DNA of 64,000 bases from an uncultured Acidimicrobiales bacterium (GCA_963763135.1 CAVXNJ010000012.1:851789-915788); one strand, 5' to 3'. Shown: positions 12,329 to 45,690, numbered from the stretch's first letter. The notes: generated from the letters alone by a model not told the origin. Translations and numbers: made by a program.

Positions 12329-13852
12329 CTAGTTCGCAACCGCTCCGATGAAGCTGGACAGGTCGACCAGCTTGGTCACCAGGGCCGGGTAGACACCGAC
12401 GGCAAGGACGCCGACGACGCAGAGACCCATCGCGAGCGAGAGAGACGCCGGGATCTTGATCGGGGTCCGGTCGCCGTCGGGAACCGGGCGCATCCACATT
12501 TCCCGCATGACGCTGGCGTAGTAGTAGAACGCGATCACCGAGTTGACCGCGGCGACGGCCGCAAGACCCACGGCCCACGGGGTACCGGCGTCCATCAGCG
12601 ACTTGAACACGAAGAACTTGGCCCAGAACCCACCGAACGGCGGGATGCCGGCGAGCGAGAACATGAAGATCGTCATGGCCACGGCGGGGACCGGGGCGTA
12701 GCTCAGAAGTCCACCGTACGAACTGATCTCGCCGGAGCGCGTCTTGCGGGCCACGATGATCACGATGGAGAAAGCACCGAGGTTCATGACGGCATACACG
12801 ATCAGGTAGGTCACGATCGCATCGAAGGAACTCCGGGCCGCGGAATCGTTCGCGTGCGCAATGGCGAACGGCGCCAGGATGAAGCCCGCTTGCGCAATCG
12901 AAGAGTATGCGAGCATACGAACGATGTTCGTCTGCTTCAAGGCGATCAGGTTGCCCACGATCATCGTGGCGACGGCCAGCGTCCAAAAGACCGGCTGCCA
13001 GACGTCGGAGCGTCCGAAGAAGCCGACATAGATCAACTGCATCAGGGCCACGAAACCGGCAGCCTTCGAAGCCACCGATAGGAAGGCGGTGACCGGCGTG
13101 GGCGCACCTTCGTAGGTGTCGGGCGCCCACTGGTGGAACGGCACCGCCGATACCTTGAACGCGAATCCGACGATGATCAAGAAGATGCCGACGGTGAGAA
13201 TCGGCGGGGTCGAGCCCGACCGCACCGAAGCGGCGATATCGGTGAGCAACGTTGCGCCGGTGACGCCGTAGACGAGCGACATGCCGTAGAGCATGACGGC
13301 CGAGGCGACCACCCCGAGGAGGTAGTACTTCAGCGCGGCCTCGTTGGACTTCGAATCCCGCTTGCGCCATCCCGCCAACATGTACGCCGGAATCGACATC
13401 GTCTCAAGCGCCACGAAGATCGTGATGAGGTCGCGTGATGAGCACATGACCACCATGCCGAGCAGCGAGCACACGAGGAGGAAGCTGAACTCCCCTTCGT
13501 AGTAGTCGCCTTCCGACAGGTACAGCGACGACAGCAACAAGACGATGTAACCACTCACCAAGAACATCGCCTTGAGGAGGAGCGCATAGTTGTCGACGAC
13601 GTAGCCGCCGCCGAACATCGAACGGTCATGACCGTTTACGGCAAGGGTCAGAAGCGGGATTCCGGCCAGCGCGACGCCGATGCCGGCGATGGTCGTGATC
13701 CAGAACTTCCGTGTCTCATCGAGAAACAGGTCGATGATGAGGATGGCAACGGCAACCGCGGTCAGGACAATTTCGGGCGCTATTGCGTGGAGATCGACAT
13801 GTGGGGCGTCGAACTTGGCAGCGCCAAGCACACCCGCAAGTGTTGCGAGCAT
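12329..13852 (-). CDS. nuoN: NADH-quinone oxidoreductase subunit N (11-subunit cluster)
   Basis: 507-aa polytopic antiporter-like protein (ND2/NuoN pattern) and last gene of the array. Confidence 0.9.
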   Translation of the reverse strand: MLATLAGVLGAAKFDAPHVDLHAIAPEIVLTAVAVAILIIDLFLDETRKFWITTIAGIGVALAGIPLLTLAVNGHDRSMFGGGYVVDNYALLLKAMFLVSGYIVLLLSSLYLSEGDYYEGEFSFLLVCSLLGMVVMCSSRDLITIFVALETMSIPAYMLAGWRKRDSKSNEAALKYYLLGVVASAVMLYGMSLVYGVTGATLLTDIAASVRSGSTPPILTVGIFLIIVGFAFKVSAVPFHQWAPDTYEGAPTPVTAFLSVASKAAGFVALMQLIYVGFFGRSDVWQPVFWTLAVATMIVGNLIALKQTNIVRMLAYSSIAQAGFILAPFAIAHANDSAARSSFDAIVTYLIVYAVMNLGAFSIVIIVARKTRSGEISSYGGLLSYAPVPAVAMTIFMFSLAGIPPFGGFWAKFFVFKSLMDAGTPWAVGLAAVAAVNSVIAFYYYASVMREMWMRPVPDGDRTPIKIPASLSLAMGLCVVGVLAVGVYPALVTKLVDLSSFIGAVAN

Positions 13853-13857
13853 GATCG

Positions 13858-15381
13858 TTACTTCCCGAAGACCTTCGTCAGCACCTGGACGGCCGGGTCA
13901 GTGACGTTGAACATGAGCTTCGGCCACAGGCCGAACACCACGATGCCAATGAGGAACGGGGTCCAGGCGAGCCACTCGTGCGTGGTCACATCTTCAAATT
14001 CGTGACCTTCCCACTCGCTCTTTTGGGTTCCGAAAGCGGTGCGCTGGTAGAGCCACAGGAGATAGCCGGCAGCGAAAACGGTGCCGACCGCTGCGACGAC
14101 CATAAGCGTACGGAACAATGCGACGTTCAGCGCGGGAGCCGGCTGGTAGGTAGACATGATGGCCGGGAACTCGCCCCAGAAGCCGGCCAGACCGGGAAGG
14201 CCAAGCGACGCCATGGATGCGAAGCCGAGCACCCAGCCCATCTTCGGCATGGTCTGCAACAGACCTCCGAGGCGCTTGATCTCGAGGGTATGGAACCGTT
14301 CCTTCACGGAACCGGCACAGAAGAAGAGCATGCCGGTGATCAAACCGTGGGCGACCATACCGAACAGTGCGGCATTGATGCCGTAGCTCGTGAGCGTCGA
14401 GATACCGAGCATCACGTAACCCATGTGGGCCACCGACGAGAAGGCGATGAGCCGCTTCATGTCGGTCTGCGCGAGACAGCCGAGAGCACCGTAGATGATG
14501 CCGATCGCAGCGAGGATGCCAATCGCGGGAGCCCAGGTCTTGGCCGCTTCAGGAAGAATCGGAATCGCGATCTTGATGAAACCGAAGGTACCGAGCTTCA
14601 GGAGGACGGCGGCGAGGATGACCGAGCCGACGGTTGGGGCCTCGGTGTGCGCGTCGGGCAACCAGGTGTGGAACGGGAACATCGGGACCTTCACCGCGAA
14701 GCCCATGAAGATGCCGGCGAAAATCAGCGTCTGCGTGTTCTTCGGGATGTTGGCACTCGCCACGTTGGCCGTGAGTTGCGCGATGTCGAACGTACGGCCG
14801 GCTTTGAAGTAGAGCGCCAGGAAGCCGAGGAGCATGAACGCCGAGCCGAACATCGTGTACAGGAAGAACTTGATCGACGCGTACTGCCGGTTCGGTCCGC
14901 CCCACACGCCGATGAGGAAGTACATCGGGAGGAGGGTGAGTTCGAAGAAGACGAAGAACAGGATCAGGTCCTGGGCGACGAAGACACCGTTCATGCCGAC
15001 TTCGAGCAGCAGCATCAAGGCGAGGACGGCCTTGGGATTGTGCGGCTCAGGCCAGTGATCCCACGAGTAGATGACGCAGAGCACGATCACGACCGTCGAC
15101 AGCATCAGCATCGGGAGACCCATGCCGTTGAGGCCGATGTGGAAGCGCGAGTTGATCACCGGGATCCACTCTTTGTTCTGCACGAACTGGTTGTCACCGG
15201 CTCGATCGAAGTTGAAGTAGGTGAGCGTAACGATGGTCATGACCATCGTGGCGAGGGCGAAGCCCAGGCCAACCGCCTTCATGCTCGCTTCGTCGTCGCG
15301 TGGCATAAGCGCCACCGCAACTGAGCCGAGCAACGGCAGGAAGATGATGAGGGTAAGACCCCAGCTATTTACAAAATCCAT
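13858..15381 (-). CDS. nuoM: NADH-quinone oxidoreductase subunit M (11-subunit cluster)
   Basis: 507 aa of ND4/NuoM type (PMFPFHTWLPDAHTEAPT). Confidence 0.93.
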   Translation of the reverse strand: MDFVNSWGLTLIIFLPLLGSVAVALMPRDDEASMKAVGLGFALATMVMTIVTLTYFNFDRAGDNQFVQNKEWIPVINSRFHIGLNGMGLPMLMLSTVVIVLCVIYSWDHWPEPHNPKAVLALMLLLEVGMNGVFVAQDLILFFVFFELTLLPMYFLIGVWGGPNRQYASIKFFLYTMFGSAFMLLGFLALYFKAGRTFDIAQLTANVASANIPKNTQTLIFAGIFMGFAVKVPMFPFHTWLPDAHTEAPTVGSVILAAVLLKLGTFGFIKIAIPILPEAAKTWAPAIGILAAIGIIYGALGCLAQTDMKRLIAFSSVAHMGYVMLGISTLTSYGINAALFGMVAHGLITGMLFFCAGSVKERFHTLEIKRLGGLLQTMPKMGWVLGFASMASLGLPGLAGFWGEFPAIMSTYQPAPALNVALFRTLMVVAAVGTVFAAGYLLWLYQRTAFGTQKSEWEGHEFEDVTTHEWLAWTPFLIGIVVFGLWPKLMFNVTDPAVQVLTKVFGK

Positions 15382-15398
15382 GGCGTTTGCGGAGACTC

Positions 15399-17720
15399 CT
15401 AGACGAACAGGGCGAGGGCGAGGCCGATGATGCCAACACCACCGAGGAACAGAGCGGCGTAGTTTTGAACACGGCCACTTTGGAGGATGCGAAGGATGCC
15501 GCCGCCGTCGCGGGCTGCGGATCCGGAACCGTTGACGAGACCGTCGACGAGACCTTGGTCAACATATTTGTATACGAGCCTGCCGCTGGCGGCAGCCCCG
15601 GTGCCAACCGTGTTGACCACACCGTCGAGGACGTTTTGGTTAACCCAGTAAGCACCCTTGGCGATCGGTCCCTTGATGGAGCCGACGACCACCCCGGTCC
15701 ACAGATGGTCGAGGTAGTACTTGTTTTTGAGGAAGTTGTAGAACCAGCGAGCCGGGGCGAAACGGCGAACGAGACCGACGTTGCCCTTCAGCACGACGTA
15801 GTAGATATACGAGGCGACGATGCCACCAACCGCGAGAGCGATCGACGGAGCGGCGACGCTCCAGGTGAACTCGCGAAGCAGGCCGTTGTGCACGATCGAT
15901 TCCTCGAACACATCGTTGGCGATGAAATGCTCGAACCAGTACTTGCCCGGCCATTGCAGCAGGCCGACGAGGAGGGCCGGGACGGCGAGGAACACCAACG
16001 GGGCCAGAATCCACCAGTTCGATTCCTGCGGTCCGTCGTGACCTCCGTGATCGTCGCCGTGAGCTCCGTGGGTGTCGTGCGAATCAACCGCGTGGGCAGC
16101 ATGCACATCAACGACGTGCGTGTCGTGCTCATCTTGAACTTCGGCCTCGTGGCCGTGGTCGTCGTGGGCCAGGTGCAACCGGTTCTCACCGAAGAACGTC
16201 TTGTACATGACCCGGGTCATGTAGGCCGCAGTCAGGAAGGCACCAACTGAGCCCGCGGCGAACGCGAAACCGAAGTGGTTCTCCTTGGCATGCGTGAGAA
16301 TCTCGTCTTTGGAGAAGAACCCCGAGAACGGCGGAATTCCGCAAAGGGCGAAGTAGCCGACGGTGAAGGTCCCGAACGTCCACTTCATGTACTTGCGAAG
16401 ACCGCCCATCCGGTCCATCTCGAAGGAGTGGTGGCTACCCGAGTGCGAGATGGAGCCCGCAGCCTGGAAGAGGAGGGCCTTGAAGAAGGCGTGCGTGAAG
16501 AGGTGGAAGATCGCTCCGGCCCAGGCACCGACCGACAGACCCATCACCATGTAGCCGAGCTGCGAAACCGTGGAGTACGCGAGGACTTTCTTGATGTCGG
16601 TTTGGACGAACGCGAGTAGCGCGGCCATCACGATCGTGATCGAGCCGATCCACGCTCCGAGGTTCATACCACCGGCCGCAATCGAGAAGCCCTTGAAGAA
16701 CACGCCGTAGAGCCGACCGAAAAGGTACACACCGGCGACGACCATGGTGGCCGCGTGGATGAGCGACGAGGCCGGAGTAGGGCCGGCCATGGCGTCGGGC
16801 AACCAGGTGTGGAGGGGGAACTGGGCCGACTTGCCGATCACGCCGGTAAAGAGGCAGCACGCCGAGACGAGCAGCAGGCTCTGCTTGATTCCACCGGTCA
16901 GCGCGAGGTGGTTGGTGTGGGCGATGTCGAAGCTCTGACCCGAAGCCCAGAACAAGATGATGATGCCGATGAGGAGACCGATATCGCCCGTGCGGGTTGT
17001 GAGAAACGCCTTGACCGCCGCCGTGGAATTGTTGTGGTCCTCCCACCAGTGACCGATCAGCAGGAACGAGCACAGACCCATCATTTCCCAGCCGAAGAGC
17101 AGGCCGAGGGTCGTTGCACTCTGGACCATCCAAAGCATGGCGGCGGTGAACAGCGCGAGCGAGGCGAAGTAGTGCACGAAGCGGCTGTCGGTCCGCAGGT
17201 ACTCACGAGAGAAAATATGTACACAGAACGAAATGAAGCTGACCACGAAGAGCATCGCTACGGCGAAACCGTCGATGTGGCTACCTAGTTCGATCTTGAT
17301 GTTGCCGTCGTTGTACCAGGTGATGAGGTTTCGAACCGGCTCCCGGAGAAGAGCAGGTCCCTCTTCTTCTGCAGTCTTCACGGACGCGGCCTTGACGGCG
17401 AAACCTTTGCTTCCGCCCGCAGACAACGCGGCGTGGGTTTCCTCGGTCACCGTCTCGTCGGCATGCTCAGCGGGAGTCCCGCCTTCGGCAGCTCCACCTT
17501 CAGCGGTCGCGGCCTCAGCGGAATGCTCGGCCGTCGTGGCGACCGGTACCTTCTCTCGCTGGTTCCACTGGACCCCGGCGACGGTCGACAGGACAAGGCA
17601 CGCGGTGACGGCCAACTGACCGACCCACCAACCGCCCTGCGGCAGCTTCTTGCCAAGGAACAAAATGATGACGAATGCCCCGACCATCAGGGCCGGAAGA
17701 ATCCAAGCGTTTTCGAGCAC
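15399..17720 (-). CDS. nuoL: NADH-quinone oxidoreductase subunit L (11-subunit cluster), unusually long
   Basis: 773 aa of ND5/NuoL type (QFPLHTWLPDAMAGPTP). Carries a low-complexity insertion after TM1 and a His/Asp-rich loop. Confidence 0.93.
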   Translation of the reverse strand: MLENAWILPALMVGAFVIILFLGKKLPQGGWWVGQLAVTACLVLSTVAGVQWNQREKVPVATTAEHSAEAATAEGGAAEGGTPAEHADETVTEETHAALSAGGSKGFAVKAASVKTAEEEGPALLREPVRNLITWYNDGNIKIELGSHIDGFAVAMLFVVSFISFCVHIFSREYLRTDSRFVHYFASLALFTAAMLWMVQSATTLGLLFGWEMMGLCSFLLIGHWWEDHNNSTAAVKAFLTTRTGDIGLLIGIIILFWASGQSFDIAHTNHLALTGGIKQSLLLVSACCLFTGVIGKSAQFPLHTWLPDAMAGPTPASSLIHAATMVVAGVYLFGRLYGVFFKGFSIAAGGMNLGAWIGSITIVMAALLAFVQTDIKKVLAYSTVSQLGYMVMGLSVGAWAGAIFHLFTHAFFKALLFQAAGSISHSGSHHSFEMDRMGGLRKYMKWTFGTFTVGYFALCGIPPFSGFFSKDEILTHAKENHFGFAFAAGSVGAFLTAAYMTRVMYKTFFGENRLHLAHDDHGHEAEVQDEHDTHVVDVHAAHAVDSHDTHGAHGDDHGGHDGPQESNWWILAPLVFLAVPALLVGLLQWPGKYWFEHFIANDVFEESIVHNGLLREFTWSVAAPSIALAVGGIVASYIYYVVLKGNVGLVRRFAPARWFYNFLKNKYYLDHLWTGVVVGSIKGPIAKGAYWVNQNVLDGVVNTVGTGAAASGRLVYKYVDQGLVDGLVNGSGSAARDGGGILRILQSGRVQNYAALFLGGVGIIGLALALFV

Positions 17721-17728
17721 GGTCGACC

Positions 17729-18028
17729 TCAGCCTTTCATCTGCGCGACGTCGGAAATGTCGATGTTGCGACGGTTCCGGTAGATGAGTAGGACAATGGC
17801 CAGACCGACGCCGACTTCAGCAGCGGCGACCGCAATCGCAAACAGGGCGAACACGTGACCGATGATGTTGTCGTTGCGCACGGAGAAGGCGATCAGGTTC
17901 ATGTTGACGGAGTTGATCATCAACTCGATCGACATGAGCACGAGCACTGCGTTGCGGCGGGCGAGCACTCCGTAGACACCGCAGCAGAAGAGAAAAGCGG
18001 CGAGGATCAGAAACTGGTTGATCATCAT
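17729..18028 (-). CDS. nuoK: NADH-quinone oxidoreductase subunit K (11-subunit cluster)
   Basis: 99 aa with three TM helices, ND4L pattern ([16 protein letters not shown]). Confidence 0.92.
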
Positions 18029-18036
18029 GGCGGCGT

Positions 18037-18549
18037 TCAGTCCCTTCGGGCGATGACGACGGCGCCGACCAATGCGGCGAGCAGAAGGATCGACGTGACC
18101 TCGAACGGAACGAGGTAGGTCGAGAAGATCGAGTCGGCGACCCGCGCGGTGCTGACCCCGGAGGCTCCGCTCGCAACGCCGTTGTGGAAGTCGAGCTTCT
18201 GCTTGCCGAAGGCATCGATCAACAACGCACCAAGGCCACCGAACAAGAACAGCGCAACAATCCCCGAAACCGCTCTCTGGTCATTGTCGAGCTGTTGTTC
18301 TTTGCCGATGGGCGCTCGGGTGAGCATGATCCCGAACAGGATGAGCACCATGATGGCGCCCACGTAGACGAGGATCTGGACTACCGCTACGAATTCGGCA
18401 GCAAGCAGAATGTATTGACCGGCCATACCGGCCAGAACGATCACGAGATACAACGCCGCGTGCACCACATTTTTCGTGGTGACGAGTTTGATGGCTGATA
18501 CAGCCATGGCGGCGGCCAAAAGGCCAAAGAAGAGGTTCTGTGCGAACAC
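18037..18549 (-). CDS. nuoJ: NADH-quinone oxidoreductase subunit J (11-subunit cluster)
   Basis: 170 aa, ND6-like, with the expected position between nuoI and nuoK. Confidence 0.88.
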
Positions 18550-18560
18550 GGCTCGGCAGG

Positions 18561-19079
18561 CTACTTCTTCTTGGCGTCGGCCCCAACCTCAAGGGCCGGC
18601 TTGGTGGGAACCGTATCGAGCCACTCGCCAAGACGGGTCTTGTCGTGCAGGAGGTCGGCAATGGACGGGGTGGAGTACTCGTACTCCGGGCTCCAGAACA
18701 GCGCGTCGAACGGACATACCTCGACGCAGATACCGCAGTACATGCAGAGGCTGTAGTCGATGTCGAACCGGTCGAGGGCCTGAACGGTACGCGGCTTACC
18801 GCCCTCACGACGGGGAGGCGCTTTGTCTTTGTGCCCTTCGATGTAGATGCACCAGTCAGGGCAGCTTCGCGAACAGAGCATGCAAACCGTGCAGTTCTCT
18901 TCGTTCAACGCAATGACCCCACGAGCCCGGGTGGGCGGGTCTTCGCGGACGTGCGGGTACTGGACCGTCTGGTTGGGACGGAACAGTTCCTTGATGGTGA
19001 CGCCGAGCCCGCCGGTCAGGCTGCGGGCGACATCACCGACTTTGGAATCGCGTAGTGCTCGAGGTAGTGGAAGAGGCAT
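18561..19079 (-). CDS. nuoI: NADH-quinone oxidoreductase subunit I (11-subunit cluster)
   Basis: Two 4Fe-4S motifs (CTVCMLCSRSCP, CMYCGICVEVCP). Start taken at ATG 19079, which shares its A with the nuoH stop (TGATG). Confidence 0.9.
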   Translation of the reverse strand: MPLPLPRALRDSKVGDVARSLTGGLGVTIKELFRPNQTVQYPHVREDPPTRARGVIALNEENCTVCMLCSRSCPDWCIYIEGHKDKAPPRREGGKPRTVQALDRFDIDYSLCMYCGICVEVCPFDALFWSPEYEYSTPSIADLLHDKTRLGEWLDTVPTKPALEVGADAKKK

Positions 19080-20131
19080 CAGAAGGCAACCTTCAAGATG
19101 GCGGTGATCATGATGTTCACAAGCGAAATCGGGATGAGGTACTTCCACGCAATCGACTGGAGTTGATCCTCGCGGAAACGGGGGTAGCTGAAGCGGAACC
19201 AGAAGATGAGGAACGCCACGAACATGACCTTGGCAAAGAGAATTCCCGGGCCGAGGATGTTGGCGAGATTGTTGTCAACCCAGGCGTCGGGCATCGGCAG
19301 GTACCAGCCGCCGAGGAACAGTGTGGCGGCGATGGCGGACAGTGCGAACGCCGAGGCAACTTCGCCGAGGAAGAACGACAGGAACCGGAAACCCGAATAC
19401 TCGGTCATGTAACCGGTGACGAGTTCGGACTCAGCGACCGGCATGTCGAACGGCGCCTGGGTGAGTTCGGCCTGGGCCGCAATCATGAAGATGGCGAAGC
19501 CGACGAACTGCGTCGCCATGAACGGCATGCCGGCGAGGTTCAGACCGAAGACTTCGAACTGCTGCTGCGCATGCACGATGTCTTGCAGGCTCATCGATCC
19601 GGCCTGGATCACGACGCCGACCACGGCAAGCACGAGTGGAAGTTCGTAGGCGATCAACTGACCGGCGGCACGGAGGGAGCCCATGAGGGAGTACTTGTTC
19701 GCACTCGCCCAGCCCGCCATCAAGATGCCGAGCACGCCGATCGACGACACAGCCAGTGCGTAGAAGATGCCGACCTTCAGATCACTGATCACGAGGTCGG
19801 GACCGGCCGGAATCACGAGATATAGCAGGAAGGTTGACATCACTACGACGTAGGGCGCCAGCGAGAAAACCCACTTGTCGGCCTTGGCCGGAATGATGTC
19901 TTCCTTCTGGATGAACTTCACGGCGTCGCCGATGTTCTGGAACCAGCCGTGGAATCCACCGGGGTCCATCGGACCGAGGCGGGACTGCATGTGGGCCATC
20001 ATCTTCAGAAGGAAGACGTAGCCAATGAGAAGGCCGCCAACCGGAATGACGACGAGAACGCCAAGAAGCTTGACTGCCGTCCAGAACCAGTAGGCATCGA
20101 GCGTGAACCCCGCGAGAACAGTGGCGCTCAT
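19079..20131 (-). CDS. nuoH: NADH-quinone oxidoreductase subunit H (11-subunit cluster)
   Basis: 350 aa of ND1/NuoH type (RLGPMDPGGFHGWFQ, AQAELTQAPFDMPVAESELV, EYSGFRF). Confidence 0.93.
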   Translation of the reverse strand: MSATVLAGFTLDAYWFWTAVKLLGVLVVIPVGGLLIGYVFLLKMMAHMQSRLGPMDPGGFHGWFQNIGDAVKFIQKEDIIPAKADKWVFSLAPYVVVMSTFLLYLVIPAGPDLVISDLKVGIFYALAVSSIGVLGILMAGWASANKYSLMGSLRAAGQLIAYELPLVLAVVGVVIQAGSMSLQDIVHAQQQFEVFGLNLAGMPFMATQFVGFAIFMIAAQAELTQAPFDMPVAESELVTGYMTEYSGFRFLSFFLGEVASAFALSAIAATLFLGGWYLPMPDAWVDNNLANILGPGILFAKVMFVAFLIFWFRFSYPRFREDQLQSIAWKYLIPISLVNIMITAILKVAF

Positions 20132-20199
20132 GAGCGTTCACTTTCGGGGCTGGCGCCACGAACCTTGGCGGAAAGAGAGATCGAAACGGAGGTCTTCAT

Positions 20200-36341: not shown

Positions 36342-36394
36342 GTGAGTCCTACGTTGCTATGCGTACGTATGAATGAGACGGAAGAGCGGAAAAG

Positions 36395-36958: not shown

Positions 36959-37019
36959 TACAGAGCGACCTCAGTGCAAAGCATTTGCAGTGCCGGTAGC
37001 GGGAGTTGCACTTCGGACT

Positions 37020-38321: not shown

Positions 38322-38323
38322 AG

Positions 38324-38839
38324 CTACCTCGCGGTTCCTTCTTTGAACTGCACGGGAATTCGGCCGGTGGCGTAGTCCTTACGCAAGGGATGCCCTTCCC
38401 AGTTGTCGGGCAACAGGATTCGGGTGAGATCGGGATGACCGTCGAAGCTGACACCGAGAAGGTCGTAGGCCTCACGTTCCATGGCTTCCGCCCCGGGGTA
38501 CAGGTCGTAAAGCGTCGGAACTTTGCAGTCGGACTCCGGGACCTGCACGCGGACACGGATGCGTTCCCGCTTGGCGTGTGAAAGCAGGTTGGAGACCACT
38601 TCAAAGCGTTCAGGCGCGACGCCCGCGGGAAGCTCCCGGGTGTGGTTGCCGAGGTAGTCGACGGCGCAAAGATCCGAGAGCTGAGCAAAGCCGTCGGCCT
38701 TCAGCGCTTTCACAACCTTCAGATAGTCAGTGCGCGTAGGATGCACGACCTTTTCGCCCCGGCTGTAGCTGACGGGTGCTCCGTGGAGTACTTCGGGGGC
38801 AGGCGGTGCGGTCTCGGTAGGAGTGGAGGTATCTGACAT
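38324..38839 (-). CDS. nuoC: NADH-quinone oxidoreductase subunit C (14-subunit cluster)
   Basis: 171 aa, 30-kDa subunit pattern (YPGAEAMEREAYDLLGVSFDGHPD). Confidence 0.9.
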   Translation of the reverse strand: MSDTSTPTETAPPAPEVLHGAPVSYSRGEKVVHPTRTDYLKVVKALKADGFAQLSDLCAVDYLGNHTRELPAGVAPERFEVVSNLLSHAKRERIRVRVQVPESDCKVPTLYDLYPGAEAMEREAYDLLGVSFDGHPDLTRILLPDNWEGHPLRKDYATGRIPVQFKEGTAR

Positions 38840-38844
38840 GGACG

Positions 38845-39393
38845 CTACTTCGGTCGTCCGATGGCAATCGTCGGAGGCGGCACGTCGAGGATGATCGAGG
38901 CGCCGGCTCCGGTCTCGTTACGGCGCTTGGTGATCTCGCCCGTGGCGATCTTTTCGTGGATCGTGAGAATCGCGTGGATGAGCGTTTCGGGTCCGGGCGG
39001 GCACCCGGGCGCGTAGACGTCGACGGGGACGATCTGATCGACGCCCTGCACGATCGCGTAGTTGTTGAACATGCCACCCGAGGAAGCGCACACGCCCATC
39101 GAGATGACCCACTTCGGTTCCATCATCTGGTCGTAGACCTGGCGAAGAACCGGAGCCATCTTCTGCGAAACGCGTCCGGCCACGATCATGAGGTCGGCCT
39201 GGCGCGGCGAAGCGCGAAACACCTCCATGCCAAAGCGCGACAGATCGAAGCGCGACGCACCGGTGGCCATCATCTCGATCGCGCAGCAGGCGAGGCCGAA
39301 CGAGGCCGGCCACACGCTGTTCTTGCGGGACCAGCTGACCAACTGCTCGACCGATCCGGTCAAGAAGTTGTGATTGAGATCTTCGAGTCCCAT
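38845..39393 (-). CDS. nuoB: NADH-quinone oxidoreductase subunit B (14-subunit cluster)
   Basis: 182 aa with [23 protein letters not shown] and GCPPGPE. Confidence 0.95.
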
Positions 39394-39396
39394 GGA

Positions 39397-39867
39397 CTAG
39401 GCAGCCTCTCCAGAGGGAGCAACCGGCTCCGGGCGACCAACGCGCCGGATTGTCGACGACGTCGACCGGGCATTGGTCAGGGTGTTTTCTGCTGAACGAA
39501 GCGCTGACACGGGTCCCCAGTCGAGCGCACCGTTGGAGATCAGATACGTGAAGGCGACGACAACTGCGGCGGAGAACATGATCATCTCGACGAGACCGAA
39601 CAGGCCCAATTGCCCGAACGACACGGCCCACGGGTACAAGAAGATGACCTCGATGTCGAAGATGATGAAGATCATCGCAACGAGGTAGAACCTCACCGGA
39701 AACCGTTCAGCCGGCTCGTGCGTGGGTACGATCCCGCACTCGTAGGGACCGATTTTTGCTGCGGTCTCTCGTCGCTTCGGCCCGAGAACGGCCGATGCAA
39801 CAAACGAGCCGAAGACGAAAAGCGTCGCTACGACAAGCAGCAAAAGGATCGGGAGATAATCACCCAC
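39397..39867 (-). CDS. nuoA: NADH-quinone oxidoreductase subunit A (14-subunit cluster) with C-terminal extension
   Basis: 156 aa with YECGIVP and FDIEVIFLYPWA. GTG start only 5 nt after the stop of the preceding membrane-protein gene, with a GAGGG Shine-Dalgarno inside that gene's 3' end. Confidence 0.9.
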   Translation of the reverse strand: MGDYLPILLLLVVATLFVFGSFVASAVLGPKRRETAAKIGPYECGIVPTHEPAERFPVRFYLVAMIFIIFDIEVIFLYPWAVSFGQLGLFGLVEMIMFSAAVVVAFTYLISNGALDWGPVSALRSAENTLTNARSTSSTIRRVGRPEPVAPSGEAA

Positions 39868-39872: not shown

Positions 39873-40712
39873 CTACGCCCTCGCAGGTTTCAACGTTGCC
39901 ATGTGGGCCATCAGTTTCTTATCCCGCTTGTGCAGACTCAGAACGCTGATGACAAACAGGATTATGGAACACATGAAGATGGTGAAGCCGGGCAAGCGCT
40001 TCGATCCGCCGTCGCGATACCCGATCACATAGATCGGTTTCGTCGAGGAATCGACCACGAAGTTGCCTTTGGCGTCTTTGACCGGTTCGCCCGAGTCATC
40101 GAGCTTGTAGGTCTGGATGACCTCCACGATGTAGTGCTTCGAATGCAGCAGGCCCATCATGCGGTAGCTGGTCGGGTCGTACCACTTCTCGCCGTGGATC
40201 TTGCGCGGACGGATCTTGAATCGCTGATCTCCACCGGTTTCGTACATCGCAACCGAGGTGTAGCGCTCGGTTCCCGTGGCGGGGAAAAGCGCCGCACCAC
40301 CGTTGGCGACAGGCTTCTTCAGATAGGCACCGAGCGCTGCGCTGGAATCGCCGTAGGTGTTCGATCCCTCGGGGACAACCCGCCAACCCTTGACCTTCAC
40401 GTCGGCTTTGGCCGGGAGCGCTGCCACCTTTTCAAGCTGAGCCGACTTCGGGTCGGTGACTGCTTCGATGCCCTTCCAGGACGGATCGCGCCCCTTCAGG
40501 CCGATTCCGTACATCATCCACACGACGCACATCAACGCCATCCAACCCCAGAATGCGGCGTTGGCAAGCAGGAATCCCAGGCGGTTACCGATGTTGGTAG
40601 CGAGGATCACGTACGTGCTCCCGCAGAGAATGAGGAACATGATTCCCGGGAAGAGAATCCCGCGGATTGTCGGGTCCCACTTCAGAATGGCAAGAACAGC
40701 AGAAAGCATCAC
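39873..40712 (-). CDS. Membrane protein of unknown function, last gene of the bc module
   Basis: 279 aa with two N-terminal TM helices, a ~170-aa hydrophilic domain and a C-terminal TM helix. ATG overlaps the stop of the dihaem cytochrome c gene (ATGA). Confidence 0.6.
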   Translation of the reverse strand: MMLSAVLAILKWDPTIRGILFPGIMFLILCGSTYVILATNIGNRLGFLLANAAFWGWMALMCVVWMMYGIGLKGRDPSWKGIEAVTDPKSAQLEKVAALPAKADVKVKGWRVVPEGSNTYGDSSAALGAYLKKPVANGGAALFPATGTERYTSVAMYETGGDQRFKIRPRKIHGEKWYDPTSYRMMGLLHSKHYIVEVIQTYKLDDSGEPVKDAKGNFVVDSSTKPIYVIGYRDGGSKRLPGFTIFMCSIILFVISVLSLHKRDKKLMAHMATLKPARA

Positions 40713-41989
40713 AGGCCCCGCTCATAGTCGACGATGGCTTCGATTTGTTGGTCGGTGAGGGTGTTGGCGAAGTACGGCATGCCTCCACCACTCCAGTGGT
40801 TTACGCCACCGGTCCCGTAGGCCTCGAAATCGGCGACACCGTTCTTTATGAAGTCGATCTGGCTGGCTTTGTCGGGGAACTGACGTTTCAGCGAGTCCTT
40901 ACGAAGCGCCGGGCCGTAGAAGCCTCCGGCCTGCTCCTTCGGTTCGCCGTAGCTGTACCCGTTGGTGTGGCACCGGGCGCAGTTGAGGTTGAACAGGATT
41001 TCGCCGTCGGATTTGGCAACGTCGGCTTTCGCTGCATCGACGCGGGCCTGCGTGGAAGCCAGATCGGCTTCGGCTGCGGCGATGGCTGTCGCCCCGCCTG
41101 CAGCCTTTGCGTCATCGAGGACCTTTTGGGCAGCGGCGAGTGTGGTTTCTCCGTCGGCAACCGTCTTCTCGTTGGCCTTCTTCAGGTCTTCGAACTCCTT
41201 GGTGTTCGCTTCCTGTGCATCTTTTTGTGCTGCCACAAAAGCTGCGTTGTACGACTTGACCGCGTCACGGGTCTTGTCCCATGTATCGGTGTAGGCCTTG
41301 AGAGCGACAGGGTCCTCTTCGACCGCCACATGTTTGAGGTAGTTCACAAGATCGTCTATCTGTTGCGCGTTGCCGGGTCCACCGCCCAGAGTGCCCCAGG
41401 CCGGCATCGGGTTGTTCTTTGCTTTGCCGCGGCCATAGACCAATACGTTGCGAATCTGCTCGGGTCGGTACCGGAGAGCCACGTTGTTGATGCGGGGCGC
41501 GGTCCACGACACGGATTTGAGGACCTGCTTGCCCGTTGCGGAATCCATTACGGGGTTGTTGTCGGCGTCGTATTGCGGTACGAGCCACGAGGCCGCACCG
41601 CCGCCGCCGTTGGCGCCGTGGCACTTCGCGCAGTTGAAGCCGTTGTGCAGTGCTCCAAAAAGCTCCTCGCCCCGCTTCACGCTCCGCTTGTCGAAGCCGA
41701 AGATCGCGCCGGTTTGGCGGCTCGGTTCGTTCAGCCAGTACAGCGGGACCGACAGCGCCACGATCGTCATGGTGACCAGGGCCCACCCCAGCCAGCGGTC
41801 GAGGCGCGGGCCTTCGAAGACTTCATCATCGGGGGCCGACTTGCGGTTCGGCGCGTTGAGGAAGCTGTGCACGATGTCTGGCGTCGTGCGACGGTTCTCC
41901 AAAACGATGTACACCGCCCACGCCAACAGCGCGGCAACGAGTAAAACGAGCGCTACGGCCCGCTGGGTTGGAAGTGCAGCGACTATCAC
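40709..41989 (-). CDS. qcrC: Membrane-anchored dihaem c-type cytochrome (QcrC-like) with long inter-domain insertion
   Basis: Two CxxCH motifs (CAKCH at ~41618-41632, CARCH at ~40968-40982). Met-ligand contexts NPMPAW and GGMPYF. Two N-terminal TM helices. 426 aa. Confidence 0.8.
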   Translation of the reverse strand: MIVAALPTQRAVALVLLVAALLAWAVYIVLENRRTTPDIVHSFLNAPNRKSAPDDEVFEGPRLDRWLGWALVTMTIVALSVPLYWLNEPSRQTGAIFGFDKRSVKRGEELFGALHNGFNCAKCHGANGGGGAASWLVPQYDADNNPVMDSATGKQVLKSVSWTAPRINNVALRYRPEQIRNVLVYGRGKAKNNPMPAWGTLGGGPGNAQQIDDLVNYLKHVAVEEDPVALKAYTDTWDKTRDAVKSYNAAFVAAQKDAQEANTKEFEDLKKANEKTVADGETTLAAAQKVLDDAKAAGGATAIAAAEADLASTQARVDAAKADVAKSDGEILFNLNCARCHTNGYSYGEPKEQAGGFYGPALRKDSLKRQFPDKASQIDFIKNGVADFEAYGTGGVNHWSGGGMPYFANTLTDQQIEAIVDYERGL

Positions 41990-42049: not shown

Positions 42050-42946
42050 TCAGTGTCCGCCGCCGACACAGTGCGGACCTTCTGCGGTCTGACCTGTCGT
42101 GTCGGTACCGTCGGCCGGACCCTGGCGTACGCCAGAGGTGTCGATGGTGACGACCCCATCGGTGACGGCCACGTCGAAGCGGTCGAGTCCGCGGGGAGCG
42201 GGACCGCCGCGGCGTTCGCCGACGCGGTTGTACTGCGAGCCGTGGCACGGACATTCGAACCACTGTGAGCTTTCGCACCACGGCACCTTGCAGCCGAGGT
42301 GGACACACTTCTGGTAAATACCGACAAGACCTTGTTCCATGCCGGCGTAGACGCCAGCCGAATAGACCTTCTGGGCCTTTTCGAGCACGGCTTTTTCCGT
42401 CGGATACGGGACGATGTAGCTACGGGCTTCGGCGAGGTACTTCGGGCCTTTGGAGGAGGTCAGCTCGTTTTTGATGTCGTCGAGTTTTCCGACGGTGACC
42501 TTGGCGCCGAATCCACCGCCAAGCGACGGCCACAGGAACGCCAGCACGGCGCCACCGAAACCGCCGAGACCGAGCAGCATCATGACGATCGTGCCCCGGT
42601 TGAGGAACTGGCGGCGGCTGACGCCGAGCTGTTCGTAGTCAAGCGGCGGACGAATGACATCGGGCAGGCTCGGTGCCGGGTTGGCAACGACTTCTTCAGA
42701 GATACCGCGACGTGCGAGGGCTACGGAACGCTCAGCGCTACGACCGCCCGGGGGCGGCGGAACCGAGGTGCCGGCTTTCGCCGCAGCGCGTTCAGCTTTG
42801 GCCCGGGCGCGGTCGCGTCGGACGGTTTCACGGGCCAGGAGCCCGGTGGCTGCATTGCGGTCGCTCTTGCGAGCGGTGACAACAAGAAAGCCGACGGCCG
42901 CGACAGCAATCACGGCGATGACGATTAGTAAGGCGATTCCACTCAT
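42050..42946 (-). CDS. qcrA: Rieske [2Fe-2S] subunit of a menaquinol:cytochrome c reductase
   Basis: CVHLGC and CPCHGS boxes. SRRQFLNRG twin-arginine-like motif before the second TM helix, plus an extra N-terminal TM helix. Confidence 0.88.
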   Translation of the reverse strand: MSGIALLIVIAVIAVAAVGFLVVTARKSDRNAATGLLARETVRRDRARAKAERAAAKAGTSVPPPPGGRSAERSVALARRGISEEVVANPAPSLPDVIRPPLDYEQLGVSRRQFLNRGTIVMMLLGLGGFGGAVLAFLWPSLGGGFGAKVTVGKLDDIKNELTSSKGPKYLAEARSYIVPYPTEKAVLEKAQKVYSAGVYAGMEQGLVGIYQKCVHLGCKVPWCESSQWFECPCHGSQYNRVGERRGGPAPRGLDRFDVAVTDGVVTIDTSGVRQGPADGTDTTGQTAEGPHCVGGGH

Positions 42947-42970: not shown

Positions 42971-43804
42971 TTAGAGCTCGAAGAAGATGCCTTCCCGCCA
43001 CGGGAAGATGAAGTTGTAACCAGGGCCTCGGAAGAACGAGCTGATGATCACGAGGACCGCCCAGAACATCAAGAAGATAGAGAACATCGAGATCGCAATC
43101 TTGCGATCCTCGGGCTTGTTCGACGGGTTCTTGTCGACGTAGGGCGACATGCCGAGGATGAACAGGCCCATACCGGGAATCGTCACGCCGGCCACCATCG
43201 GGTCGAACATCGTGAGCAGTTCCTGGAGACCGAGGAAGTACCAAGGGGCCTTCGCCGGGTTCGGTGTCTGGTTGTAGTTGGCGAGCGCGAGAAGCGGGGC
43301 ATTGACGAACGTCGAAAGCACCATCAACACGACCAGGCAGGCGAGCGCCGCAACGAATTCGCCGACCAACAGGTGGGGCCACGTACTGACCTTGTCGGTC
43401 GGAACGGCCTTCACGTCTTGGATGGACCCCGCCTTGACGACGGTGAGGAGCCGCTGCGTATGGCCATCGGGACCAACAAGCCCGGCCGTAGATGACGTGG
43501 CAAGCGCTCCGGCCGCGGCGGCCGCCGCACCGGTCGGTTTATCGAGAACGGCCACGCCACCCCCCGCCGGCGCTGCACCACCATCGGCAGCAGCCGCTTT
43601 CGCGGCCTTCGCGGCTTGGCTGCGGGCCAGAAGATGCGACGGGATCTTCCCGGTCTTCTCGGCTTCGGCGTAGCTCGCGGCAGCATCATCTGCTGCCGGC
43701 GCGCTGGCGGCGGGTGCCTCGGGCGCGGCGCCACCGGACTTCTCCGCCAGCTTGCGCGCTTTGGCCTCCGCGGACTTCCGCTTCATTTCTTCGAGATCAG
43801 CCAT
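42971..43804 (-). CDS. Cytochrome b C-terminal domain protein (b6f subunit IV-like) with Ala-rich N-terminal extension
   Basis: 277 aa. The last ~150 aa hold three TM helices and a Qo-site motif region, KAPWYFLGLQELL, corresponding to PEWYF of subunit IV. The first ~120 aa are A/K/E/P-rich low complexity. Confidence 0.8.
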   Translation of the reverse strand: MADLEEMKRKSAEAKARKLAEKSGGAAPEAPAASAPAADDAAASYAEAEKTGKIPSHLLARSQAAKAAKAAAADGGAAPAGGGVAVLDKPTGAAAAAAGALATSSTAGLVGPDGHTQRLLTVVKAGSIQDVKAVPTDKVSTWPHLLVGEFVAALACLVVLMVLSTFVNAPLLALANYNQTPNPAKAPWYFLGLQELLTMFDPMVAGVTIPGMGLFILGMSPYVDKNPSNKPEDRKIAISMFSIFLMFWAVLVIISSFFRGPGYNFIFPWREGIFFEL

Positions 43805-43850: not shown

Positions 43851-44624
43851 TCACAGAGGACCGGAGATACCGCCGTCTTTACGGACACGCCAGAAGTGGA
43901 TGGCCATGAAGATCACGATGACAAACGGGAACAACAACACGTGAAGCACGTACCAGCGCAGCAGTGTGTTCGTTCCGATCTCGACGCCGGACAGCAGCAC
44001 GAATCGCGCCTGGCCACCAAAGACCGGCGTGTAACCGATCATGTTGGTACCTACGGTCACGGCCCAAAGTGCCAACTGGTCCCACGGGAGGAGGTAGCCG
44101 GTGAAGGAAAGGAGGAGGGTCAGCGTCAGCAGGATCACGCCGATGATCCAGTTGAACTCACGGGGAGCCTTGTACGCCCCGTGGTAGAAGACGCGAGCCA
44201 TGTGCAAGAACACCGAGAGCACCATGAGGTGGGCACCCCATCTGTGCATATTTCGGACGAGCAGGCCGAACGACACCGCCGTGTGAAGCGTCTGGATGTC
44301 TTGCCATGCCAGGGCTTCGGTTGGCCGGTAGAAGAACATCAAGAAGATGCCGGTCACCGTGAGGATGATGAACAAGAAGAAGGACAAACCACCGAGGCAG
44401 AGCGTGTAGCTCACCTTGACGGCATGGCGCTTCACCTTCACCGGGTGAAGGTGGTACAGCAGCGAGTTCATGATGACGTAGCTGCGGTTACGGGGCGAGT
44501 CGCTGTAACCCTTACGGAAGATCGAGCCCGGGCGGAAGATCGAGTTCCAGGCTTGGCTGCCTTGAACTTTGTCTACGGTCTCGGCGAGTTTGGCACTCGG
44601 TCCTGGCTTCATTGGTGTTGCCAC
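43851..44624 (-). CDS. qcrB: Cytochrome b6-type protein (N-terminal four-helix cytochrome b domain)
   Basis: 257 aa. Helix B His pair (MHRWGAHLMVLSVFLH, i/i+14) and helix D His pair (LHVLLFPFVIVIFMAIH, i/i+15, the b6-type spacing). LCLGG matches the YCLGG of b6/Bacillus QcrB. Confidence 0.88.
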   Translation of the reverse strand: MATPMKPGPSAKLAETVDKVQGSQAWNSIFRPGSIFRKGYSDSPRNRSYVIMNSLLYHLHPVKVKRHAVKVSYTLCLGGLSFFLFIILTVTGIFLMFFYRPTEALAWQDIQTLHTAVSFGLLVRNMHRWGAHLMVLSVFLHMARVFYHGAYKAPREFNWIIGVILLTLTLLLSFTGYLLPWDQLALWAVTVGTNMIGYTPVFGGQARFVLLSGVEIGTNTLLRWYVLHVLLFPFVIVIFMAIHFWRVRKDGGISGPL

Positions 44625-44687: not shown

Positions 44688-45047
44688 TTAGAAGCGCATC
44701 CCGTAGGAGTAGCCGTGTTTGTTGTCGCGCATGTGCTGGTCGCCGTCGCGTGGGGCGACGCCGGCCTTGCCCATGATGATCACGCCGGTCGGGCAGCGGT
44801 CCACACAGAGACCGCAGCGGGTACAGACGTCTTCGTCGACGACGAAGATCACGTGGTCATCGGGATCGGTACCCGGGGCGACCACATTCGTGGAGTCTTC
44901 AACCGTGCCCGCAGCCAGCATGTGAATGCACTTCCACGGACAGATGTCGACACAGCCCTCGCACATGATGCACTCGGACTGGTCAATGTGCAGGAACTGC
45001 TTGGGCTTGACGCTTTTGTTCAGCTCGTCGACCGTGATCTCCGCCAA
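44688..45047 (-). CDS. 2x[4Fe-4S] ferredoxin-domain protein; true start probably ATG 45100, with one base missing in a homopolymer
   Basis: CIMCEGCVDICP and CTRCGLCVDRCP motifs. The only in-frame start is TTG 45047, with no Shine-Dalgarno. An ATG at 45100 with GAGAAAGG 8 nt upstream joins this frame if the G6 run 45074-45079 were G7. Confidence 0.8.
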   Translation of the reverse strand: MAEITVDELNKSVKPKQFLHIDQSECIMCEGCVDICPWKCIHMLAAGTVEDSTNVVAPGTDPDDHVIFVVDEDVCTRCGLCVDRCPTGVIIMGKAGVAPRDGDQHMRDNKHGYSYGMRF

Positions 45048-45102
45048 CGTGTAATTGCCGGGGAAGTACGGGAGGGGGGACTCGCTTCGCTTTTCGCCAT
45101 GG

Positions 45103-45618
45103 TTAGGCCTTTCTCACCAGCGGACGACCGTAGGTCGAACTTGTTTCGAGTGCCTTGAGCTCAGCGGCCTTCTTGCCACGTCGCTGCCAACCGGTCCACA
45201 TGAAGCCGTGGATTCCGAGGAAGATGATGTACAGCGTCGCCGCGATGATGTCGCGGATCGTCTGCTTCGTGATCGTCACCTTGCCGCGGCCGCCAAAGTC
45301 GATTCCTTCGGGCCAGAGCACGTTCTTCGAATGACTGAAGAAGTTGCTTTCCCACGACTTCGGGGTGAGCCGACCCAGAGGGCCGATTGGGACACCCTTG
45401 ATATCGGAACGCCAATTCATCGTGTTGCCATTTGCCCACTTCAAGAATGTGTCGGGCACGATTCCGTAGGCGAGAACGAAGACCCAAAACAGCACCAAAC
45501 CGGCCACCATGGCCTCGCCCCAGGTCAACGGGGTGCCGAGAGGTCGCTTTTTGCCGTATGCCCAAATCGCCCCGACAGTGACGACGAGAGCAAGCATTGA
45601 TCCGAAGAACGCAACCAC
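45103..45618 (-). CDS. Small membrane protein of unknown function, first gene of the bc/nuo array
   Basis: 171 aa with about 3 TM helices (MLALVVTVGAIWAY, MVAGLVLFWVFVLAYGIV, IIAATLYIIFLGIHGFMW). No family recognised. Confidence 0.6.
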   Translation of the reverse strand: MVAFFGSMLALVVTVGAIWAYGKKRPLGTPLTWGEAMVAGLVLFWVFVLAYGIVPDTFLKWANGNTMNWRSDIKGVPIGPLGRLTPKSWESNFFSHSKNVLWPEGIDFGGRGKVTITKQTIRDIIAATLYIIFLGIHGFMWTGWQRRGKKAAELKALETSSTYGRPLVRKA

Positions 45619-45672
45619 TCGTTTGACCTATCTATCCTTGGATTCGGGCCAGCAGAACACGTTGTGAGCGCC

Positions 45673-45690
45673 TTGTGAAGCGGTTCACTA
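45673..45690. promoter_or_regulatory. Candidate Rex operator (ROP-like) in the divergent promoter region
   Basis: TTGTGAAgcggTTCACTA versus the Streptomyces-type Rex operator TTGTGAA-N4-TTCACAA (1 mismatch). An extra TTGTGAG half-site lies at 45662-45668. It sits 55 nt upstream of the first gene of the minus-strand array. Confidence 0.6.

Follow-up and report, generated by a model that had tools for sequence, protein, structure and literature searches.

Respiratory complexes are normally encoded in separate, separately regulated operons. This does not appear to be the arrangement in a 64,000-nucleotide (nt) stretch of DNA from an uncultured Acidimicrobiales bacterium (GCA_963763135.1, CAVXNJ010000012.1:851789-915788), called the window here, with positions counted from the first letter of the whole stretch. 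An open reading frame (ORF) listing combined with Pfam scans bears out a run of 33 consecutive minus-strand genes from 45618 down to 12329, which encode a cytochrome module, a complete complex I and a second set of nuo genes. A first-pass annotation had noted that the array looks like a single transcription unit. Is the 33-kb array one unit or several? Most likely, it is a conserved respiratory neighbourhood that would be read as several transcripts and not as one. The arrangement that we favour, and consider probable though far from certain, is a Rex-controlled operon of 21 genes (the b6c-type cytochrome module and nuoA-N), followed by separately promoted nuoA2B2, a CHAP-domain gene and nuoC2-N2.

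Gene order and its conservation

The array opens with a seven-gene cytochrome module, continues with the 14 genes nuoA-N, and ends with nuoA2, nuoB2, the CHAP gene and nuoC2, D2, H2, I2, J2, K2, L2, M2 and N2. Its gene content, order, spacing and motifs, and their conservation in relatives, are direct observations. Of the 33.3 kb, 1038 nt (approximately 3%) are intergenic. Many junctions had been described as overlapping, and seven are: four by 4 nt and three by 1 nt, with the start of nuoI2 set to 19079 (a 1-nt overlap). This start is the most likely one, and not 19148; NuoI2 of relatives is 168–172 amino acids (aa) long. The first-pass annotation also saw almost no intergenic space and an all-respiratory array, which is wrong for the second nuo cluster. 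There, gene 24 of 33 encodes a CHAP-domain hydrolase that had been overlooked together with a 14-bp hairpin and the spacers on both sides of the gene (246 nt before and 97 nt after it). These spacers make up 343 of the 1038 intergenic nt, that is a third, and the region 45619-45948 upstream of the first gene is therefore not the only long non-coding one.

Relatives were collected in two samples. A NuoG scan, with one genome per species, gave 458 matches, the best 80 of which were kept as loci; all 80 are from Acidimicrobiia, with a NuoG identity of 52–85%. A scan with the b6-like protein of the cytochrome module supplied 80 further loci or contigs from metagenomes. Gene order was determined by tblastn with all window proteins, and the start codons of relatives were placed by homology and are approximate. 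Across the 80 genome and 80 metagenome loci the order is a divergent cytochrome c, then a 171-aa protein, ferredoxin, b6, subunit IV, Rieske protein, cytochrome c, a 279-aa protein, nuoA to nuoN, and nuoA2, B2, C2 and D2. Complete chromosomes are among the Acidimicrobiia loci with this order. The window itself is part of a 1.49-Mb contig, and an independent short-read contig carries an identical cytochrome c/278-aa/nuoA junction. The first-pass annotation had asked whether the contiguity might be unique to this assembly; it recurs in both samples, and misassembly of the array is ruled out by synteny over 160 loci that include complete chromosomes. The layout is the norm for Acidimicrobiia and not peculiar to the window genome.

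The array is not equally tight throughout. The cytochrome module is followed directly by nuoA1 in 85 of 86 informative loci (51 of 51 from genomes and 34 of 35 from metagenomes), and nuoN1 by nuoA2 in 40 of 51. The genes nuoB2 and nuoC2 are contiguous in distant relatives and broken apart in the clade of the window.

Probable operon fusion of the cytochrome module to complex I

The 279-aa gene at the end of the cytochrome module stops at 39873, and the GTG start codon of nuoA1 is at 39867. The gap of 5 nt and the position of the nuoA1 Shine–Dalgarno (SD) sequence, GAGGG, within the 279-aa gene are exactly as first described. In relatives, the median gap is 5 nt, and 87% of the gaps do not exceed 20 nt (n=85), which makes the junction indistinguishable from those inside nuo; within the nuoA-N cluster of the window, gaps range from −4 to 61 nt. 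Independent gene calls agree on this junction, including one with a homologue that is 34% identical.

Adjacency could also reflect history or a shared chromosomal domain, with the cytochrome module and nuoA-N transcribed separately and a promoter placed in or just before the 279-aa gene. Our motif searches covered one family of −10 elements (TAGNNT and TANNNT), and promoters of another form may lie inside coding sequence. Internal restarts do arise, since nuo is split between nuoD and nuoE in three relatives, and one locus has the cytochrome module without nuo. We nevertheless regard separate transcription as unlikely. The 5-nt median gap persists in lineages in which NuoG is only 52% identical, the SD sequence of nuoA lies inside the upstream gene, and TAGNNT is nearly absent upstream of nuoA1 (within 150 nt in only 6% of loci). 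There is also no Rex box near nuoA1, although Rex targets nuoA-N in Streptomyces; the box stands at the head of the fused array.

This box had been proposed as a Rex-type operator in the region 45619-45948, and the scan located it at 45673-45690. The site, TTGTGAAGCGGTTCACTA on the plus strand, has one mismatch to TTGTGAA-N4-TTCACAA, is the best match in the window, and lies in the non-coding region upstream of the first array gene. The scan of the 64 kb gave six matches at no more than three mismatches against 1.1 expected, a number that 0 of 100 shuffles reached. Upstream of the orthologous first gene, Rex-like boxes were found in 37 of 58 metagenome regions at up to three mismatches (0.011 expected per region) and in 21 of 58 at up to two. 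The 294 kb downstream of the first gene contain no box at up to two mismatches and seven at up to three. Rex-like boxes are approximately 57-fold enriched upstream of the orthologous first gene. When the region is aligned with three relatives (down to 60% protein identity), the half-sites are invariant and the flanks variable. In many relatives a TANNNT hexamer abuts the Rex box and is followed by an SD sequence and the start codon, and TAGNNT occurs within 150 nt upstream of the first array gene in 48% of loci. Approximately 40 nt upstream of the box is a conserved block, GTGGTAGAAA (45727-45736, minus strand), which is invariant in the alignment and recurs in many metagenome loci as the motif GTG[GC]TAGA[AC]C. 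It is a candidate for a −10 variant or for the site of another regulator.

The gene for Rex itself is 12 kb from the array (57347-57997, minus strand). It was identified by Pfam and by the NCBIfam Rex equivalog model (323 bits against a cut-off of 226). Directly upstream of it is the second-best Rex box of the window (58015-58032, two mismatches), which abuts a TAGCTT hexamer, and Pfam places hemA and hemC downstream of rex. No separate Rex box precedes nuoA1 or nuoA2 in the window, and among the relatives only L036 has one between nuoN1 and nuoA2.

Much of this is known from Streptomyces. In S. coelicolor and S. avermitilis, the 14-gene nuoA1-N1 operon is under a Rex operator of the form TTGTGAA-N4-TTCACAA, rex shares its locus with hemA and hemC (as rex-hemACD) and has its own operator in front, and a second (partial) nuo set exists (PMC5355995). 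Both nuoA1-N1 and rex-hemAC1DB are direct Rex targets in S. avermitilis and are repressed by Rex (PMC5355995). The window differs in that the operator lies 5.7 kb upstream of nuoA, before a fused b6c-type module, and in that the second nuo set is directly downstream, with a foreign gene interrupting it. These comparisons give good support to Rex control of the first promoter. There is no room before nuoA1 for an operator of its own, and the operator stands at the head of the fused array, which agrees with one unit under Rex that extends from 45618 to 24344.

The promoter-like signature of nuoA2

Between the nuoN1 stop at 24344 and the nuoA2 start at 24265 there are 78 nt, in which folding gave no stable hairpin (−11.4 kcal mol−1); the first-pass annotation was exact on both points. 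This is the loosest junction of the array. In relatives it has a median of 87 nt, with at most 20 nt in 3% and more than 100 nt in 35% of loci (n=40). After nuoN1, 11 of 51 loci lack nuoA2, and five loci have 1.1–1.6 kb inserted between the two genes.

The spacer contains a promoter-like signature (24274-24304, minus strand) that consists of TTTCGT (24299-24304), 19 nt, TAGGAT (24274-24279), 8 nt and the GTG of nuoA2. The same TTTCGT-N19-TAGGAT-N8-GTG is present in the related loci L001 and L167. In 36 of 40 loci, a TANNNT hexamer is found within the range of 5–10 nt, namely at 8–9 nt, ahead of the start codon of nuoA2, as against at most 2% for each of 24 other genes, and SD-like sequences show the opposite trend (5% of loci for nuoA2 vs. 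14–100% for the 24 other genes). TAGNNT is found within 150 nt upstream of nuoA2 in 95% of loci; the figure is 0–8% for genes other than nuoA2 and the first gene. Sequences aligned on the start codon show the hexamer as TAGGCT, TAGTGT or TAGGAT. A conserved GGATTTCAT block precedes the hexamer by approximately 19 nt, across a spacer that varies, and the hexamer stays beside nuoA2 in the loci with 1.1–1.6 kb inserted after nuoN1.

In form, hexamers of this kind agree with the −10 elements of the actinobacterial primary sigma factor, and messages without a leader are common in the phylum. We infer from the signature a leaderless or nearly leaderless promoter. In strictly leaderless actinobacterial genes the hexamer is typically 6–7 nt from the start; with 8–9 nt at nuoA2, a leader of 2–3 nt must be assumed. 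The slightly long spacing, and a window spacer that has no terminator and so makes read-through likely, would also suit another explanation, in which TAGNNT-N8/9-start is a conserved translation-initiation or RNA-processing element of a read-through transcript. We think this quite improbable. The hexamer is of actinobacterial −10 form, is paired with the upstream block across a variable spacer, and persists despite 1.1–1.6 kb or GC-rich hairpins between nuoN1 and nuoA2. Moreover, TAGNNT also precedes rex (TAGCTT) and stands beside the first-gene Rex box in relatives.

The break between nuoB2 and nuoC2

After nuoB2 the cluster is interrupted. A terminator-like hairpin at 23247-23277 (minus strand) consists of ACGAATGGCCGCCC-GGT-GGGCGGCCATTCGT, a perfect 14-bp GC-rich stem, followed by GTTCCTGGGTTTTCC. 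Each relative examined has a hairpin after nuoB2, a different one at the same place. The CHAP-domain gene (22243-23064, minus strand; 273 aa, probable start ATG at 23055) was identified by Pfam and encodes an endolysin-like hydrolase, which matches PHROGs endolysin families with E=2e-26. It is found in the same position only in L001 (21775-22599) and L167 (2668-3486). The gene is best described as a later insertion, foreign to the respiratory cluster.

Beyond the CHAP gene, a −10-like TAGTCT (22152-22157, minus strand) stands 6 nt before the nuoC2 GTG at 22145. TAGTCT-N6/7-GTG is kept in the window and in L164, L165, L166 and L167, of which L165 and L166 are apparently two assemblies of one organism. 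These four loci and the window form the clade in which nuoB2 and nuoC2 are apart. On motif evidence, a TANNNT hexamer a few nt upstream with no SD sequence marks two genes as putatively leaderless, nuoA2 at 8–9 nt and nuoC2 at 6–7 nt. In distant relatives, nuoB2 and nuoC2 are contiguous, with a median gap of 4.5 nt and an SD sequence. Where the two genes are apart in relatives, 1, 6 or 52 kb of unrelated DNA fill the space. The L009 genome has 6.2 kb between the two genes, with six unrelated genes, some of them on the opposite strand and one pair being a toxin–antitoxin system (PemK); in the L012 genome, nuoC2 is approximately 52 kb beyond nuoB2. Both halves, nuoA2B2 and nuoC2-N2, are intact in all genomes with the break. 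Since both are retained across it, nuoA2B2 and nuoC2-N2 must be expressed separately in the clade of the window.

These data bear directly on the proposal that all 33 genes form one unit of approximately 33 kb, transcribed from the Rex-controlled promoter, with both quinone reductases and the quinol oxidase made in fixed proportion. All the genes are on one strand with 3% intergenic DNA, the nuoN1–nuoA2 spacer is free of hairpins, and a consensus scan yields terminator-like sites at the level of shuffled sequence. Set against this are the conserved promoter-like signatures at nuoA2 and nuoC2, the 14-bp hairpin and the 246-nt spacer after nuoB2, and the foreign gene within the second cluster. 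In relatives, nuoB2 and nuoC2 can be 6 kb (with opposite-strand genes) or 52 kb apart with both parts retained, and nuoA2 can be absent from its place after nuoN1. A single 33-kb unit is thus highly improbable, because the neighbouring second cluster appears to have its own promoters. What stands of the original proposal is its first part: a redox-coordinated unit of cytochrome module and complex I, covering the first 21 genes, is plausible because of the tight junction and the Rex operator.

Consensus sigma-70 promoter and terminator scans were also tried. Their matches were no more frequent than in shuffled sequence and they missed the nuoB2 hairpin, and we consider them uninformative for this high-GC genome.

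Several features are noted here in their own right. The point between nuoB2 and nuoC2 is a recurrent insertion point (L164, L165, L012/L009; contigs CAVXQD010000007.1 and JANPBU010000045.1). A long inverted repeat with 11-bp arms, GCGACGTTCGG ... CCGAACGTCGC (23168-23220, minus strand), is found downstream of the nuoB2 hairpin, before the CHAP gene. The CHAP protein lacks a signal peptide and carries a tail rich in Arg and Ser. In the nuoA2–nuoB2 spacer there is a perfect 15-nt tandem duplication, two copies of TACGTGTCGTGCAGT (23865-23894, minus strand).

Transcription model

In the following model, the sites at which transcription starts and stops, the binding of Rex, co-translation and the functions of the enzymes are predicted from the sequence. 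The first unit would extend from 45618 to 24344 (21 genes, 21.3 kb) as a fusion of two operons, and its sole promoter region, with the Rex operator, would precede the first gene. Rex would repress this unit as long as the NADH/NAD+ ratio is low. When NADH rises, Rex would come off the DNA, and a single message would serve for the joint synthesis of the NADH-oxidizing and quinol-oxidizing complexes. Translation may be coupled across the junction of the cytochrome module with nuoA by stop/start overlaps and gaps of 2–5 nt. The second unit would be nuoA2-nuoB2, with a promoter of its own that is leaderless or nearly so (TAGGAT, 8 nt, GTG). It is probably also fed by read-through from the first unit, because the 78-nt spacer has no hairpin, and its probable end is the 14-bp hairpin after nuoB2. 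Transcription would restart at the leaderless-type promoter before nuoC2 (TAGTCT, 6 nt, GTG) to give the third unit, nuoC2-nuoN2.

A number of points weigh against this model. It derives all of its promoters and terminators from motifs and conservation, and the loci from which conservation is judged are phylogenetically non-independent, with many freshwater lineages mutually close. Around a third of the relatives, chiefly freshwater types, have no recognizable Rex box. The window itself has no clean −10 hexamer beside its Rex box, as the candidate, TAGTGA, does not end in T. The 279-aa gene could contain a promoter whose −10 sequence is of another kind, and L115, the sole exception among the 86 loci, has a full cytochrome module without nuo. 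In the second cluster, the U-tract of the hairpin after nuoB2 is weak, and the distance from hexamer to start at nuoA2 is longer than the leaderless norm.

The cytochrome module

The seven genes of the module are all on the minus strand. The first (45103-45618) encodes a conserved membrane protein of 171 aa from the GTG at 45618; gene callers place the start at the ATG at 45597, which gives 164 aa. It has no match in Pfam, NCBIfam or the PDB sequences. Its homologues, always just upstream of the ferredoxin gene, are nearly all unnamed or annotated as hypothetical protein.

The second gene (44688-45100) encodes a 2x[4Fe-4S] ferredoxin, assigned by Pfam Fer4 families, with an identity of 62–100% across the class. 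Relatives have a ferredoxin of 137 aa with an ATG equivalent to 45100, and it starts 2–17 nt after the preceding stop. The open frame in the window is shorter (44688-45047, 119 aa). A run of C at 45069-45082 (minus strand) is 1 nt shorter in the window than in relatives, and the first 18 ferredoxin codons are out of frame because of it. The short run is probably a homopolymer assembly error and possibly a real frameshift. The gap of 55 nt that seems to precede the ferredoxin gene in the window is made up of these 18 codons. An apparent conserved gap of 58 nt at this place in relatives was discarded as an artefact, the truncated window protein having been the query.

Cytochrome b is split over two adjacent genes, which match Pfam Cytochrome_B and Cytochrom_B_C. 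The first of them (43851-44624) encodes a b6-like subunit that corresponds to the N-terminal four-helix half of cytochrome b. Its best PDB matches are to cytochrome b6 (163 bits, E=1e-46), with mycobacterial and corynebacterial QcrB at approximately 80 bits. The alignment with b6 extends to the C-terminus, which reads ...GISGPL as in b6. In the predicted protein, Cys76 (LCLGG) aligns with Cys35 (YCIGG/YCLGG) of b6, the ligand of haem cn/ci. The subunit just reaches the NCBIfam cut-off of the model for the Geobacter-type split cytochrome b ExtP. The second gene (42971-43804) encodes the C-terminal half, similar to subunit IV, with an Ala-rich N-terminal extension of approximately 140 aa. Its Qo motif, read directly from the sequence, is APWY and not the canonical PEWY or PDWY.

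The Rieske [2Fe-2S] protein (42050-42946; Pfam Rieske) contains the motifs CVHLGC and CPCHGS, and its top NCBIfam matches are to b6f-type Rieske proteins, below the cut-off. It is followed by a membrane-anchored dihaem cytochrome c (40709-41989) with two Pfam cytochrome c stretches (CAKCH and CARCH). The module thus has both the Rieske cluster-binding boxes and a c-type cytochrome partner. The last gene (39873-40712) overlaps the cytochrome c stop and encodes the conserved membrane protein of 278–279 aa. The exact 279-aa version is not on record because gene callers start one codon later; the 278-aa version (P0001) was found. The protein has no match in Pfam, NCBIfam or PDB sequences, and its AlphaFold model has no Foldseek match in the PDB (best E=0.17). 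The model (pLDDT, the predicted local distance difference test score, of 79.5) consists of two N-terminal helices, a β-rich domain and a C-terminal helix. Both orphan membrane proteins are conserved throughout the class, and neither has a named homologue.

On the plus strand, a membrane-anchored monohaem cytochrome c (45949-46734; SD sequence and GTG start, Pfam cytochrome c) diverges from the module and shares its Rex-bearing intergenic region. A homologue is in the same position in most metagenome loci that reach that far.

The first-pass annotation had set this module against the usual separate actinobacterial qcrCAB locus. The contrast is a loose one, as there is no orthologue of QcrCAB here. 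The NCBIfam models for QcrB (bc1_QcrB_actin, 113.5 bits against a cut-off of 500), QcrA (21 against 275) and QcrC (30 against 200) all failed. Because these models were missed so widely and the cytochrome b is of b6 type, the predicted complex is a different one, of b6c type, and not the actinobacterial QcrCAB. It shares with QcrCAB of Mycobacterium, Corynebacterium and Streptomyces the character of an actinobacterial menaquinol-oxidizing Rieske/cytochrome b complex with a dihaem cytochrome c. QcrB, however, is unsplit (~540 aa) and the gene order is qcrC-A-B, whereas the window has the split form in the order b6, subunit IV, Rieske protein, cytochrome c.

The closer likeness is to the b6f or 'green clade' split complexes of cyanobacteria, Bacilli, Heliobacteria and Geobacter (ExtP/ExtQ), which share the split after helix 4 (PMC3509893, PMC4122944), as well as the cysteine at the haem ci position and the GISGPL end of the b6-like subunit. 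Kao and Hunte listed a split cytochrome b for Ilumatobacter (Acidimicrobidae), and assigned the split forms of actinobacteria to one of two clades, PEWY-cyt c or APWY (PMC4122944); the motif of the window is the variant by which the latter is defined. The module differs from the b6f-type complexes in that a dihaem cytochrome c takes the place of cytochrome f. The module also adds a 2x[4Fe-4S] ferredoxin and the two orphan membrane proteins, and is fused to nuoA-N.

The two nuo sets

The complex I cluster occupies 24344-39867 on the minus strand, with each ORF matching its own Pfam family in the order A to N. It comprises nuoA1 (39397-39867), nuoB1 (38845-39393), nuoC1 (38324-38839), nuoD1 (37020-38321), nuoE1 (36395-36958), nuoF1 (35016-36341), nuoG1 (32317-34968), nuoH1 (31088-32314), nuoI1 (30396-31085), nuoJ1 (29860-30396), nuoK1 (29528-29863), nuoL1 (27552-29525), nuoM1 (25882-27555) and nuoN1 (24344-25885). 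The N-module is complete by its Pfam domains: 2Fe-2S_thioredx in NuoE, Complex1_51K and NADH_4Fe-4S in NuoF, and Fer2_4, NADH-G_4Fe-4S_3 and Molybdopterin in NuoG.

The nuo order is kept in related loci, save for the nuoD1/nuoE1 split in three of them, where the two genes are separated by 0.5–7 kb (L026 7989, L053 7943, L078 6109). A Rex-like box, TTGTGCAAGGATTCACGA, is found 2 nt before the nuoE1 ATG in relatives with this split; it overlaps the SD sequence and is suggestive. In L115 a convergent ORF similar to type IV pilin replaces nuoA after the cytochrome module (8524-9702).

The second set, also on the minus strand and identified by Pfam, begins with nuoA2 (23900-24265; Oxidored_q4) and nuoB2 (23302-23829; Oxidored_q6). 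It continues after the break with nuoC2 (21432-22145), nuoD2 (20200-21432), nuoH2 (19079-20131), nuoI2 (18561-19079), nuoJ2 (18037-18549), nuoK2 (17729-18028), nuoL2 (15399-17720), nuoM2 (13858-15381) and nuoN2 (12329-13852). After nuoN2 there are a structured 118-nt spacer and a convergent gene. Identities to the first-set paralogues are 36% for nuoA2, 50% for nuoB2 and 31–44% for nuoC2-N2. A recent duplication of the nuo cluster is rejected at identities of only 31–50%, and for the same reason the two sets are old paralogues. Pfam found no NuoE, NuoF or NuoG homologue in 12329-24265, which leaves an 11-subunit set of A, B, C, D, H, I, J, K, L, M and N. As it has no NADH-binding module, the predicted enzyme would take its electrons from a donor other than NADH, for example ferredoxin. 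NuoL2 is 773 aa long, with an N-terminal insert of approximately 80 aa and a His/Asp-rich insert (HDDHGHEAEVQDEHDTHVVDVHAAHAVDSHDTHGAHGDDHGGHDG); in relatives it has 710–816 aa.

The same subunit set without E, F and G is known from 11-subunit complex I-like enzymes, such as cyanobacterial NDH-1 and the enzyme of Desulfitobacterium (PMC3144371, PMC11238625), and an 11-subunit enzyme without the NADH module has already been reported from Actinobacteria (PMC3144371). The set in the window differs from these in adjoining a full complex I, in its conserved leaderless-type promoter signature, in the nuoB/nuoC break of its clade, and in its 773-aa NuoL with a His-rich insert.

Other features of the window and of the sample

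Beyond rex, hemA and hemC, the region 48583-58032 contains, on the same strand, intervening genes (dapD and msrA homologues among them) and then hemB and a hemL-like aminotransferase gene. A kdpABC operon with the two-component genes kdpD-kdpE is at the left end of the window (104-7615, plus strand) and is unrelated to the array. Five public metagenome-assembled genomes in our sample (L025, L042, L059, L062 and L065) carry an Acidimicrobiia-type locus under record titles such as 'Bifidobacterium breve' or 'Bifidobacterium sp.', which is an apparent mislabelling.

Conclusion

All components of the array are of known kinds. The novelty lies in an operon fusion that is conserved, in a leaderless signature at the second enzyme and in a breakpoint that recurs after nuoB2. 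No description of an operon fusion of cytochrome b and nuo genes (b6c–complex I) turned up in the searchable full-text literature. A related case is that of the anammox bacterium Kuenenia (cited in PMC5600118, PMC12954380), in which the genes of a split Rieske/cytochrome b complex share an operon with those of a NAD(P)H-linked redox module. The extra subunits of anammox bacteria are regarded as parts of one complex, whereas the predicted partner in the window is a complete canonical complex I.

The 5-nt fusion might be explained if the b6c complex and complex I were co-assembled as a physical complex I–III supercomplex. The 171-aa and 279-aa proteins would then serve as bridging or assembly subunits, and the ferredoxin would dock at the haem ci side of the b6-like subunit. 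We consider such an assembly improbable. If it did exist, it would be a bacterial respirasome with its composition written into one operon.

Lakes, soils, oceans and activated sludge all harbour abundant Acidimicrobiia. The whole class appears to put a quinol:cytochrome c oxidoreductase and an NADH dehydrogenase on one Rex switch, and probably on one message. If this is true, the array would be a simple genetic model for the coordinated synthesis, and possibly the co-assembly, of complexes I and III. A place in the respiratory chain would be assigned to two orphan families of membrane proteins and to a ferredoxin, and these Actinobacteria would use a b6-type complex and not the QcrCAB complex studied in mycobacteria. 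The leaderless signature would provide a clean marker for the independent regulation of the second enzyme, which lacks the NADH module.

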